From Promethearchaeota archaeon (GTDB lineage: Archaea > Asgardarchaeota > Lokiarchaeia > Sigyniarchaeales > SOKP01): DNA of 64,000 nucleotides. A program made the position numbers and the translations under genes. The notes under the pieces are model-generated. The model did not search any database and was not told the origin of the DNA. It saw only the letters and a program-made list of their open reading frames with translations. Of the stretch, positions 12,671 through 15,967 are shown in pieces (the stretch's first letter is position 1; the number at the start of each line of letters is the position of its first letter). The stretch spans positions 227,107 through 291,106 of the forward strand of contig JALGVJ010000001.1 in assembly GCA_029838195.1 (NCBI GenBank). Direction: 5' to 3'.

Positions 12671-13035
12671 AAAATCTGCTCTACCGCTTCATGCTTGACT
12701 CCTAAATTATAAATAAATTAGAATCGTGATTGAAATCAATACATGAAGATTTTTTAAAAACGATAGAAAGAAGAAATATTGTTTTATAATCTTCTTAAAA
12801 AGAATTTTTATTCATGAGAATTGATAATAATTATCAAAAAGTAACATTTAATTAAACAATATTTAATACAAAAATCAATAAAACATAAAATTAAATTATC
12901 TTTTTAGAAAAAAATAATCGATTTTCATAATTATTCATTTCAAAATAAGTCATGGTTTTAATAGGAGTAATTCTATTTTTATCATATAATTTTTTACTCA
13001 TTGACTTGCGATAGTGAATAAGAATTCCAATTGAT

Positions 13036-13566
13036 TTGTCTTTTAAACTCTGCGTGTTCGGGGCTAAGGGTTCTGGGAAATCGGCGATAATTTATAAACT
13101 CATATCAGCAAAATTAAAAACACAAATGGAGCTTGGAAGAACATTGGGGGCGGATATTATTTTGAAACAAATCACGCGAGTGGGAAAAAAAATTCTATTA
13201 CAAATTTGGGATATTATTGGAGAGAAGCAATTTAGAATGATGCTTCCAATTTATTCGAGGGGAGCGGCAGGAGCTATTTTAGTATTTGATATGAGTAGAG
13301 AAGAAAGTATAGATGAATCTAAAGAATGGCTTGAACTTTTCAAATCAGGTCAGGAAACGATACAACCACGCATTCCTATAATCTTAGCAGGAAACAAGGC
13401 AGATCTCGTGGAAAATAGAAGCCTGATTTATCAGAGAGCTAAAAAATTAGTTATTGATCATGATCTTATAGAATACATGGAAGTTTCAGCGAAAACAGGA
13501 GAAAATATTCAAGAATTATTCACTACATTGATTGATACTATTTTAATCGAAAGGGGGTTTTATTAG
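13036..13566 (+). CDS. Rab/Ras-like small GTPase
   Basis: G1 GAKGSGKS, G2 TLG, G3 WDIIGE, G4 NKAD, G5 SAK; no C-terminal cysteine motif; TTG start. Confidence 0.9.
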   Translation: MSFKLCVFGAKGSGKSAIIYKLISAKLKTQMELGRTLGADIILKQITRVGKKILLQIWDIIGEKQFRMMLPIYSRGAAGAILVFDMSREESIDESKEWLELFKSGQETIQPRIPIILAGNKADLVENRSLIYQRAKKLVIDHDLIEYMEVSAKTGENIQELFTTLIDTILIERGFY

Positions 13567-14666
13567 AAAAAAATCTCTTCAATTAGATGTTCCATGGGGG
13601 AGAATGCGTTTAAATTTCCCTTCCAATCCTCTAAAATGGGTGAAAAAAGTTCTTCAATTCTGCTGGTTAATTTATTGAGTAAAATTTGATAATGTTTTAA
13701 AAGCTCATCACAAATTAAAATGGAATATACATGAGTAGATGGCTGTACGATTATTATTTTCCCTTCTTTTTCGATAATTGAAAGTCCTTCAACTTGGGTG
13801 GCTTGTTCTAACATCATTTTTAGCATGATCAAGCTTCCAGAAAAAACATATTCGCCTGCGGATGTATCTATTCTTTTTCTGAAGTTTTTCTTATAAATTA
13901 ATAAACCCGATTTATGAATGATGAAGATACTTTCCAGCTTGTCTTGCCAAGCATATTCTGTTAAAGAAGGAACAGAAATAAAAAACCACGCAAGCAAGAT
14001 AAATCCAATTAATTGAATGATATCTCCATAAAAACGGTAAATCACGCCAAATGGGACGATTATATAAGGCGTGGTTAATAGAAAACCGATAATGATGATT
14101 AAAATTCCTAATGAAAACTTGAAAATCTCAAATTGTAAATTGATAATCCCCTTTTTAACTTGTAGTTTAGACCTCATGCTTATAAAATAGAGGATAAAAA
14201 AAATGATGAGTATTGACATGTAGAGATAACCGAAGATAAATCCAATGGATATATCTATTAAGATTATTATCATGTAAATAGGAAGAAATATTAAAGAGAT
14301 TCTGGTGAATAAATATCTTTTAAAATACACTTTTAGATTTTCCATTATCTTAAAAAATAAAATGATGCTGGCAACTTGAATCGACATCCCGATGGTAGAA
14401 AAAAGGTCATGAAAATAGGAAGATTGAACGTAAAAATCCGCAATAACGAAAAACATCCACATGAACGCATATCCCAAAAATAACCAAAAATACGCTTTTT
14501 CTTCTAACGATTTTAATTTCATTTTGTTTTTACCATGAAATCGTGTCCATAAAAAAAAAGATTGCTCGAAAAAGAGAAAGGTGATTAGATATTCCAAGAT
14601 TAAAAGAGGTTCTCTAAACATTCCGGTTATAGGAAAAAAATCTTGTGTGATCACGTGAACACCCAT
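13563..14666 (-). CDS. 7-TM membrane protein with C-terminal longin-like domain
   Basis: Seven hydrophobic segments, then LESIFIIHKSGLLIY...VFSGSLIMLKMMLEQ...IIEKEGKIIIV...FSPMEHLIEEIF (longin beta-beta-alpha-beta-beta-beta-alpha-alpha pattern). Confidence 0.7.
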   Translation of the reverse strand: MGVHVITQDFFPITGMFREPLLILEYLITFLFFEQSFFLWTRFHGKNKMKLKSLEEKAYFWLFLGYAFMWMFFVIADFYVQSSYFHDLFSTIGMSIQVASIILFFKIMENLKVYFKRYLFTRISLIFLPIYMIIILIDISIGFIFGYLYMSILIIFFILYFISMRSKLQVKKGIINLQFEIFKFSLGILIIIIGFLLTTPYIIVPFGVIYRFYGDIIQLIGFILLAWFFISVPSLTEYAWQDKLESIFIIHKSGLLIYKKNFRKRIDTSAGEYVFSGSLIMLKMMLEQATQVEGLSIIEKEGKIIIVQPSTHVYSILICDELLKHYQILLNKLTSRIEELFSPILEDWKGNLNAFSPMEHLIEEIFF

Positions 14667-15821
14667 CTAATAATTGGTCATAATTTTTTGTTTTATAACA
14701 GTATCGAAACTTGAAAATAGTTTTTGTTTAAATTCTTTTGATTGAGCAATCTTCATTAAAATAGGAGAATATAGCTTGATGAACTCCTCTTTTACTTGTT
14801 TGATTATATATCTCAAGCTGTTTAACTCTTTTTTAACAAAAAGGTAAAAGATTAAAAAATCAAAAGGCTTTTCAGCATGTTGGATTAAAATCAAGTATTT
14901 TTGGTGAGATATCTTATCTACGTTATCATTTGTAGATTCAGAGATAAAAGAGATGATGCTTTCCATTCCGATTAGTCCTCGTGAAAATAATATATTTGAT
15001 CCCTTCTCTTGTTCTTCCCATTGCTCATGGTTCGAAATAGGAATAAGATTAAAGTGATATTGATATAGAATTTCAAAATTCACCCTATTTACAACGTATA
15101 AACTGATAATATTCTCCTTCCAATCAAATTCTAAAAACATGGGAAATTTATAGGCGCCCAAGAAAAAAATTAAAAGTCCAATAATAAAAAGGGGTACGGA
15201 AATGATTTGAAGTAAATCAGTATAAGCACTCAATAATACATTGCTCGGCGTATAACCTCCTAAAAAATGAGATACAAATATTAATATGATGGCCCAAAAA
15301 ATAAGATTTAACCTTTTTCGAATATCTCCTGTAGTGAGCTGAGCTAACTTATTTTGAAATTTTAAAATAATGGAATAATAAAGTACTAACGTAATGCCGG
15401 CAATCGTGCTATACAATAAAGTTTCTATGGTCATGATTAGAGAACAAAAAATAGGAATCAATAAAAGGAATGATAATGCACGAATAAAATTAGTCCTTAT
15501 AATGGCATTAAATGCTTTAGAAGAAATAATCAGATAAAAAACCATAATCCCCGTATATAATAAAAGATATGTCGTTCGAACTAAGGGAGAAAATATCTTT
15601 GGATAATAAATTCTTAAAAAATATAAATTTAGAATACGAATCGTAAAACCTGTTAATGTGATTCCAAATATCAAGCCATACCCTAATAATAAATTATTAA
15701 ATTTAATTTTCTCATTTTTGTATTTGGCATGCAAATATAAGAAATAACCCGAAATCTGATATCCAATTACAATAGCAATGAACATGAGGGGTAAATAAAA
15801 TTCTCTAAAATAATTCGCCAT
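14667..15821 (-). CDS. 7-TM membrane protein with C-terminal longin-like domain (paralog of the downstream gene)
   Basis: Seven TM segments, then EFDWKENIISLYVV...LFSRGLIGMESII...LRYIIKQVKEEFIKLY...FSSFDTVI; same architecture as 13563..14666. Confidence 0.68.
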   Translation of the reverse strand: MANYFREFYLPLMFIAIVIGYQISGYFLYLHAKYKNEKIKFNNLLLGYGLIFGITLTGFTIRILNLYFLRIYYPKIFSPLVRTTYLLLYTGIMVFYLIISSKAFNAIIRTNFIRALSFLLLIPIFCSLIMTIETLLYSTIAGITLVLYYSIILKFQNKLAQLTTGDIRKRLNLIFWAIILIFVSHFLGGYTPSNVLLSAYTDLLQIISVPLFIIGLLIFFLGAYKFPMFLEFDWKENIISLYVVNRVNFEILYQYHFNLIPISNHEQWEEQEKGSNILFSRGLIGMESIISFISESTNDNVDKISHQKYLILIQHAEKPFDFLIFYLFVKKELNSLRYIIKQVKEEFIKLYSPILMKIAQSKEFKQKLFSSFDTVIKQKIMTNY

Positions 15822-15967
15822 GGAACTCTTGCATTTTAGAGTTTATTTCGATATAAATTTAATTTTTTGTAATAAATAAATTTAAAATAACACGGCATAT
15901 AAATTCTTTTTTCAGTGCACATGGAATTCTCCCCCTAAAAAAATTGAATCTTGGGATAATTTCTCTC

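Follow-up and report, generated by a model that had tools for sequence, protein, structure and literature searches.

Two adjoining genes of a Promethearchaeota archaeon, here denoted A and B, encode predicted seven-helix membrane proteins that each end in a cytoplasmic longin domain, and they are met by a convergent gene for a Rab-like small GTPase. All three lie in a 64,000-nucleotide stretch of contig JALGVJ010000001.1 (positions 227,107 to 291,106; hereafter the window). Gene order and gene trees indicate that A-B pairs are inherited together with one clade of Rab-like GTPases, which makes the pair a good candidate for what has been missing from archaeal small GTPases, a membrane anchor or a regulator. 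We give roughly even odds (about 0.5) to the reading that the pair is a membrane-anchored longin platform which binds its cognate GTPase and holds or switches it.

The genomes of Asgard archaea hold genes for dozens of Ras-superfamily GTPases along with numerous longin and roadblock proteins, which raises the question of how GTPases without a lipid reach or read the membrane. One study expressed such GTPases and roadblock proteins of Asgard origin in human cells, where they stayed diffuse (PMC10933270). A membrane-spanning longin platform would be a concrete answer to how these GTPases meet membranes. If it exists, the pairing of a longin heterodimer with a Rab, which defines organelle identity in eukaryotes, was already membrane-bound in archaea. 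Homologous A-B pairs are found in closed genomes of the same order (e.g. G135), and as the closed genomes with pairs may include cultured strains, experiments could be within reach.

Two paralogous membrane proteins with longin domains

Gene A (14667..15821, minus strand) encodes 384 amino acids and gene B (13563..14666, minus strand) encodes 367, both being supported by open reading frame (ORF), AlphaFold2 model and alignment. The ATG of B (14666-14664) directly abuts the stop codon of A (14667-14669), and 5' of A lies an AT-rich intergenic region of 146 bp with TATA-like boxes (15822..15967, minus strand), the likely A-B promoter. From this layout A and B look like a bicistron with its own promoter, A being the first gene and B the second. 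The GTPase gene (13036..13566, plus strand; 176 amino acids) converges on B, and its TAG (13564-13566) overlaps the TAA of B (13563-13565, minus strand) by 2 nt. The original prediction had given these three reading frames, the exact abutment and the overlap of stop codons, and all were confirmed. With the stops overlapping in this way the 3' ends of the two transcripts must overlap, and mutual antisense effects are possible. G+C content is about 28-32% across the A-B-GTPase region and about 34% in the window.

AlphaFold2 models were built with family alignments of 36 sequences for B (alignment A1) and 34 for A (alignment A2). Model confidence (predicted local distance difference test, pLDDT) was 79.8 for B and 81.9 for A, the latter with a predicted template modelling score (pTM) of 0.76. 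Hydropathy and the models agree on seven membrane helices in each protein, as had been proposed from the sequence. The membrane domain spans residues 2-223 of A (15153..15818, minus strand) and 18-231 of B (13974..14615, minus strand); both are supported by the modelled helices, fold matches and the distribution of positive charges, that of B also by conserved residues. Lysine and arginine number 14 on the inner loops against 2 on the outer loops in B, and 9 against 2 in A, a distribution that puts the longin domains on the cytoplasmic side and the N-termini on the outer side. Outer loops in both proteins are of 10 residues or fewer, and the N-terminus comprises 1-17 residues.

Structural comparison was exhaustive against 48,161 PDB representatives (VIA-align) and resolved the two domains separately. 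For both membrane domains the best match was the adhesion G protein-coupled receptor (GPCR) ADGRL3 (8jmt_A), with Z 14.8 and a root-mean-square deviation (rmsd) of 4.2 Å over 209 residues for A and Z 13.4 and 3.8 Å over 197 residues for B, a borderline result given that unrelated helical bundles reach Z of about 13-14 by chance. The bundle is therefore treated as a GPCR-like arrangement only. Further adhesion receptors and members of classes C, B and A came next, along with microbial rhodopsins at Z 9.9-11.5. No Pfam or NCBIfam model matches A or B, whether Pfam 7tm_1/2/3 and others or, for the membrane domain, any transporter or channel family; one of the 36 B-family members matched 7tm_3 at E 0.71.

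Several charged residues are invariant or nearly so in the B alignment (E25, E34, E56, D77, E109, R211 and D215), and all lie in helices or at helix ends. The linker from helix 7 to the longin domain is the motif best shared between the two proteins. In B it reads P233-x3-E237-x2-W240 (13947..13970, minus strand), with W240 invariant and P233 and E237 nearly invariant. The corresponding residues of A (P227, E231 and W234, within residues 226-234; 15120-15146, minus strand) are conserved and align with the B motif in hhalign. The buried acidic residues and the invariant linker are a hint that the membrane domain of B may be more than an anchor.

In both models the C-terminal domain is built around a five-stranded sheet in the order beta-beta-alpha-beta-beta-beta-alpha-alpha. 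The B domain (residues 244-366; 13569..13937, minus strand) has strands at residues 244-251, 256-261, 296-300, 303-309 and 313-319 and helices at 273-288, 324-346 and 352-366 (DSSP). That of A (residues 238-381; 14679..15110, minus strand) shows this order too, and has in addition an acidic insert after strand 2 and before helix 1 (residues 257-283), which is modelled with low confidence. Each protein carries one longin domain, not three, the remainder being the seven-helix domain.

Superposition on solved longins, at Z 10-13.5, and the strand-helix order bear out the longin fold that had been proposed for both proteins. The B domain best matched Sec22 (3egd_C; Z 13.5, rmsd 2.3 Å over 116 residues), followed by VAMP7 (Z 12.9), synbindin (2zmv_A, 12.7), sedlin (2j3w_A, 12.3), CPLANE (12.2) and the SRX domain (5ck3_A, 11.0), and it also matched a solved Lokiarchaeota longin (8yqg_B, Z 10.4). 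The A domain best matched CPLANE (7q3d_C; Z 12.8, rmsd 2.7 Å over 121 residues), followed by SRX (5ck3_A, 11.3), Mon1-Ccz1 (8c7g_C, 11.2, and a second match at 10.9), BLOC-3 (10.9) and TRAPP (10.8). The structures of tri-longin guanine nucleotide exchange factors (GEFs) matched by A at Z 10.9 were 9rs7_A and 8zwc_B. Foldseek ranked zeta-COP and AP sigma best for the B longin, returned nothing at E<=0.001 when the whole B model was searched against PDB, and gave poorer matches to MglB (rmsd >6 Å over about 90-115 residues). A roadblock/LC7 fold, which has the order alpha-beta-beta-alpha-beta-beta-beta and begins with a long helix, was considered and rejected, as there is only a helix of 4-5 residues ahead of strand 1 and a pair of long helices after strand 5.

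At the level of sequence the Pfam longin-type models (Longin, Sybindin, Sedlin and Clat_adaptor_s) gave nothing above threshold for A or B. Below threshold, Sybindin was matched by 2/36 members of the B family (best E 0.0013) and Robl_LC7 by 4/36 (best E 0.0054), and there was a faint profile signal to Trs23 (E 0.039).

The two proteins are real, if remote, full-length paralogs of ancient origin, as had been suspected. BLASTP sees only the C-terminal part of the relationship (20% identity over 165 residues, E 6e-4), whereas profile-profile alignment with hhalign covers the full length (343 columns, probability 99.4%, E 5.5e-22, 14% identity). Conservation is asymmetric, B being much more conserved than A in the alignments. 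All of the roughly 28 loci around the best B matches have A followed by B on one strand with a gap of 0-45 bp. Extending the comparison to wider stretches from 60 further loci gave the same order, strand and spacing in 49 of 49 other pairs, so that A-then-B pairing is strictly conserved. This gene pairing suggests that the two products may heterodimerise through their longins.

Several genomes hold multiple paralogous pairs or arrays, which makes it appear that the family expands by tandem duplication of whole pairs. One array (L045; G128:C5:1284351-1291645) reads A-B-A-B-B-B within a single 7-kb stretch, and others at L046, L061, L097 and L098 include A-B-B and two A-B pairs in tandem among their forms. 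In deeper Asgard lineages the homologs are single or tandem and have not differentiated into A and B.

The seven-helix longin proteins make up a large family that has no name and has been seen in Asgard archaea alone. A match to it at E<=1e-5 was found in 347 of 400 genomes of the phylum, and clustering at 50% identity gave 1374 clusters at E<=1e-3 and 174 at E<=1e-30. All named members are entered as 'hypothetical protein' of Lokiarchaeota, Promethearchaeota, Hermod-, Hel- or Thorarchaeota, and full-length structural look-alikes in the ESM Atlas belong to Asgard clusters only. Fusion of a seven-helix domain to a longin is not described in the searchable literature on Asgard GTPases, roadblock and longin proteins. 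Among the families that a recent preprint gives as common to Asgard archaea and eukaryotes are '7TM proteins' and a 'class C GPCR' cluster, with no further detail.

Inheritance with a clade of Rab-like GTPases

The window GTPase belongs to the Ras family (Pfam, E 1.2e-34). A profile of its clade retrieved Rabs as all of the top 60 PDB sequences, plus a solved Thorarchaeota Rab. The G motifs can be read directly in the sequence as GAKGSGKS (the P-loop; 13060-13083, plus strand), DIIGE (G3; 13210-13224, plus strand), NKAD and SAK. The window protein has neither the catalytic glutamine after DxxG nor a C-terminal prenylation cysteine; glutamate stands in place of the glutamine (DxxGE instead of the Ras-type DxxGQ) here and nearly throughout the clade. 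No lipidation cysteine or other C-terminal lipidation signal was found in the window GTPase, in agreement with its original description as non-lipidated, and the clade likewise lacks the cysteine. Most members of the pair-linked clade have G-K-x-D in place of N-K-x-D (alignment A3), while the window retains NKAD. DxxGQ is retained in other clades of pair-adjacent GTPases (L047, L093, L077, L096 and L098).

Nineteen of the 49 other A-B pairs have a small GTPase gene no more than 400 bp away, which makes 20 of 50 with the window included. As background, 33 of 1245 co-directional neighbouring gene pairs in this genome (2.65%), which holds 74 Ras-superfamily ORFs, have such an ORF within 400 bp. 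Adjacency is thus about 15 times the background, a statistic that overstates the link, as related loci are not independent. Four arrangements occur. The GTPase is divergent and upstream of A at 5 loci, precedes the pair in a G-A-B operon with gaps of 28-130 bp at 11 loci (families f1, f4 and f7), follows it as A-B-G at 2 loci, and is convergent in the window and at one other locus. These arrangements fall in several B clades and three taxonomic families, and several independent changes are needed on the B tree.

In a GTPase tree made by a quick method, the window GTPase falls within a clade of 14 (support of 95 in the Shimodaira-Hasegawa-like approximate likelihood ratio test, SH-aLRT), of which it is a long-branch member. 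Thirteen of the 14 are pair-adjacent GTPases, and the other is a further gene of this genome (C77:47354-47887) without a seven-helix longin neighbour. For the subclades of divergent-upstream and G-A-B GTPases, the order of branching agrees with that of the matching B subclades. Best BLAST hits had pointed to the GTPases of other pairs not being orthologous to that of the window, an idea that was dropped because the tree places the window GTPase in the same clade. One genome (G183) holds both divergent-type and operon-type modules, so that GTPase, A and B seem to have duplicated as a unit. Judged on gene order and trees, then, the A-B pair has been inherited together with this clade of Rab-like GTPases.

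A metagenomic relative has a layout identical to that of the window, namely methyltransferase, A, B, convergent GTPase with overlapping stops, and S15 peptidase, with 54% identity in B and 47% in the GTPase. The flanking methyltransferase and S15 peptidase recur only in close relatives, and no other neighbouring gene family was found to be conserved across the pair clades. The overlap of the B and GTPase stops at 13563-13566 recurs at L100:5080-5083, where the B proteins are only 54% identical.

Further genes accompany some pairs. In the window, positions 891-2453 encode a 520-amino-acid multidomain GTPase whose full-length orthologs (51-55% identity; L079:1470-3035 and L079:6315-7871) flank a G-A-B operon on both sides in genome G268. 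From this one other locus it is possible that the multidomain GTPase is a further component of the module. A conserved soluble protein of 151-159 amino acids is encoded about 0.3-1.5 kb downstream of B in four G-A-B loci (L071:3515-3970, L072:4089-4544, L073:3399-3854 and L074:7922-8377) and at L063:4271-4750, where no GTPase was found; by its sequence pattern it looks like a stand-alone longin.

The start of the window GTPase gene is uncertain, with TTG at 13036 or ATT at 13030. The window reads ATT-GAT-TTG, and relatives have I-D-x-x-F-K before the first strand. The ATT lies two codons before the TTG, and a close relative (L100) has a plain ATG at that place. In seven pair-linked GTPase genes, the stretch from the upstream stop codon to the P-loop contains no ATG, GTG or TTG (L036:8243-8353, L037:4271-4381, L038:8012-8056, L039:8129-8239, L040:6919-7029, L042:8220-8294 and L072:7645-7755; the corresponding window region is 13018-13038). 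All seven have a GGAGG-like motif followed after 5-9 nt by ATA, ATT or ATC, and this codon is in the reading frame of a conserved start, I-S-I-D-L-A-F-K. Together, this suggests initiation at AUA, AUU or AUC in pair-linked GTPase genes.

A proposed membrane platform for the GTPase and its alternatives

In eukaryotes, heterodimers of longin proteins are known to act on GTPases of the Rab, Rag and Arf types. In the reading favoured here, A and B would be co-translated from one bicistronic message and form a membrane-embedded heterodimer with seven helices each, N-termini outside and both longins in the cytoplasm. The two longins would form a longin-longin platform like those of eukaryotic Rab and Rag regulators, and this would directly bind the neighbouring lipid-free Rab-like GTPase, tethering or switching it at the membrane. 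Nucleotide exchange or nucleotide-state-dependent recruitment would be the likeliest activity, since the fold neighbours of A are GEF-type longins and there is no conserved arginine finger. B would be the conserved, functionally critical subunit and A a fast-evolving partner. The conserved acidic residues buried in the B helices, taken with the invariant P-E-W linker, suggest that the state of the membrane domain may be passed through that linker to the platform.

Docking of longin A, longin B and the GTPase had been put forward as a check, and a complex prediction was run with the three chains, each with its own alignment. The interface score (ipSAE) was 0.54 against 0.34 for the best control, and controls with the partner replaced gave 0.00 and 0.01. 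Runs shared at least 86% of contacts, with a partner pLDDT of at least 79. In calibration, 58 of 80 solved complexes and 2 of 110 mismatched pairs attained the mark; at scores of 0.60 or below only 7 of the 80 solved complexes reached it, and both passing mismatches scored that low. The predicted complex therefore stands above its controls, but by the calibration its support is weak. As longin-GTPase complexes have already been solved, part of the score may be recall.

Several points weigh against a GTPase platform. The three-chain score is weak, and with A replaced it was still 0.34. Adjacency, which the original prediction expected to be conserved, holds for the 20 pairs described above and extends to the same convergent overlap in a relative, but 30 of the 50 pairs have no GTPase within 400 bp, and family f3 pairs and all single or tandem homologs of deeper Asgard lineages have none within about 5 kb; the enrichment itself is inflated by related loci. 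Longin domains also serve in roles unrelated to GTPases, such as in SNAREs and adaptor sigma subunits, and the best single match of the B longin is the SNARE Sec22. Neither longin has a conserved arginine, and at the level of residues neither matches the site of a known GEF or GTPase-activating protein (GAP). No fused seven-helix-longin-GTPase protein appeared in a search for longer forms, which is weak evidence of absence; that search found only P0191 (739 amino acids), which shares just the longin domain.

The direction of control could also run the other way. The SRX longin-like domain of SR-alpha reads GTP-bound SR-beta, and on this model the GTPase would act upstream, and the seven-helix longin pair would be its effector, for example a transporter, a channel or an enzyme of the membrane, which is switched by the GTP-bound GTPase sitting on the longins. 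SRX (5ck3_A) is indeed among the good fold matches of both B (Z 11.0) and A (Z 11.3), and the genomic linkage with GTPases is equally compatible with this direction. Conserved charges inside the B membrane helices (E25, E34, D77, R211 and D215) are as found in transporters and channels, and a classical receptor that binds a ligand would need longer outer loops. However, the membrane domain matches no transporter or channel family in sequence, and its best fold matches are receptors, not transporters. We regard an effector role as unlikely, though it deserves to be kept in view.

Quite unlikely is a signalling receptor, in which an ion, lipid, membrane state or ligand acting at the buried acids of B would be relayed through the P-E-W linker to the longin heterodimer and GTP loaded onto the dedicated GTPase. 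The original prediction had proposed a ligand-gated exchange factor with a GPCR-like logic, which is not supported, the outer loops and N-terminus being tiny and the GPCR fold match borderline for helical bundles. Ligand gating of the pair has no support as yet. Were the receptor to exist, it would be an archaeal counterpart of GPCR signalling free of heterotrimers, and the first membrane-identity device for Asgard small GTPases, preceding the recruitment of eukaryotic Rab GEFs.

It is similarly doubtful that the pair works independently of small GTPases, for instance in scaffolding at the membrane, as a SNARE- or adaptor-like trafficking part or as a lipid or ion sensor, with adjacency due only to GTPase genes being dense and mobile in these genomes. 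The 60% of pairs and all deep-branching homologs without a neighbouring GTPase fit such a view, as do the 74 Ras-superfamily ORFs of this genome, the best matches of the B longin (Sec22, and in Foldseek adaptor sigma and zeta subunits) and the weak complex prediction. What it leaves unaccounted for is adjacency at about 15 times background, in four arrangements and several clades and including tight G-A-B operons, with adjacent GTPases that form their own clade, two subclades of which branch like the B subclades, and with no other neighbour family conserved across clades.

Known longin GAPs use an arginine finger. An arginine is conserved in neither the A nor the B longin domain and the closest A folds are of GEF type (CPLANE, Mon1-Ccz1 and BLOC-3), so that a GTPase-activating platform which turns the GTPase off at the membrane, like FLCN-FNIP, GATOR1 Nprl2-Nprl3 or C9orf72-SMCR8, is very unlikely, despite the precedent of longin-heterodimer GAPs in eukaryotes (PMC12290439) and the DxxGE of the pair-linked clade, which with glutamate for the catalytic glutamine may need help in trans for GTP hydrolysis.

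Comparison with known systems and further gene clusters

Mon1-Ccz1, BLOC-3 (Hps1-Hps4) and CPLANE (Inturned-Fuzzy) resemble the A-B pair in having two paralogous longin subunits, in our case presumably paired through their longins and encoded beside a Rab-like GTPase. In these tri-longin Rab GEFs, however, each subunit has three longins, is soluble and is recruited to membranes, whereas A and B have a single longin fused to a seven-helix domain. There is no homology at the level of sequence; the likeness is one of fold, and GEF activity here is hypothetical. TRAPP is a Rab GEF whose core (Trs23/synbindin, Bet5 and sedlin) shares the longin fold (2zmv_A, Z 12.7; 2j3w_A, 12.3; 3cue_C, 10.3-10.8). 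It is to this core that the A/B family has its only faint sequence signal (Sybindin and Trs23), far below family thresholds. Unlike TRAPP, the A-B locus has no Bet3-family partner, and its architecture is a membrane fusion.

The longin GAPs (FLCN-FNIP, GATOR1 Nprl2-Nprl3 and C9orf72-SMCR8) likewise are heterodimers of longin paralogs acting on a small GTPase at a membrane, but they possess an arginine finger and additional domains, DENN among them, and have no membrane-spanning segment, whereas A and B have no conserved arginine. In the signal recognition particle (SRP) receptor, a longin-like domain binds a small GTPase at the membrane (SRX/SR-beta; 5ck3_A, Z 11.0-11.3; 6frk_y, 10.8). There the GTPase SR-beta is the anchored partner and the longin-like domain is soluble; in the A-B module anchoring would be reversed, with two longins.

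In Ragulator/SLC38A9-Rag and MglB-MglA, a dimeric platform of the longin/roadblock superfamily retains or regulates a small GTPase without a lipid, either at a membrane or at the cell pole, and SLC38A9 is a multi-pass membrane protein that regulates Rag. In contrast to the longin order of A and B, these platforms have the roadblock order with the helix first, and Ragulator is anchored by lipid via p18, not membrane-spanning. The longin SNAREs (Sec22, VAMP7 and Ykt6) carry a longin on a membrane-anchored protein and are the best fold matches of the B longin. Their longin is N-terminal and is accompanied by a SNARE motif and a single C-terminal anchor, whereas that of A and B follows seven helices, with no SNARE motif.

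Eukaryotic GPCRs have seven helices, the same N-out/C-in topology and a cytoplasmic element directly after helix 7, and their folds (adhesion and class C best) match at Z 13.4-14.8 over 197-209 residues, a range reachable by unrelated bundles. A and B have no sequence similarity to them, no recognised GPCR motifs and no extracellular domain, and to our knowledge archaea have no heterotrimeric G protein. By analogy of parts, the closest prokaryotic counterpart of the A-B-GTPase module is the actinobacterial conservon (CvnA-D), an operon in which the gene for a membrane sensor accompanies those for a protein of the roadblock superfamily and a Ras-like GTPase. Conservon systems have been likened to GPCR signalling (PMC13343842, PMC13621833, PMC8510531). 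They comprise a histidine-kinase-like sensor, a separate soluble roadblock protein and a DUF742 GEF, so that only the GTPase is shared with the A-B locus and the likeness is analogy only; in A and B, seen in Asgard archaea alone, the longin is fused directly to the seven-helix domain, and this fusion exists as two paralogs. Paired paralogs that carry a longin on a seven-helix domain are absent from all of the systems compared.

Two other gene clusters of the same genome deserve mention. About 14-17 kb before the window, G000:C1:209844-212818 (L055:845-3819) encodes a 165-amino-acid protein, two seven-helix proteins of 217 and 229 amino acids from overlapping genes, and an Arf-like GTPase of 298 amino acids with a C-terminal extension (Pfam Arf, 5e-34). 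These seven-helix proteins (C1:210342-211656) show no detectable kinship with the membrane domains of A and B (hhalign probability <1%). On another contig, G000:C22:16422-17999 (L056:3423-5000) encodes a multi-pass membrane protein of 525 amino acids with weak similarity to MFS_1, and a Rab-like GTPase gene (C22:21347-21895) lies 3.3 kb away. The C-terminal region of this protein matches the B-family profile (E 4e-11), and longin-type domains may thus be fused to other membrane scaffolds too.

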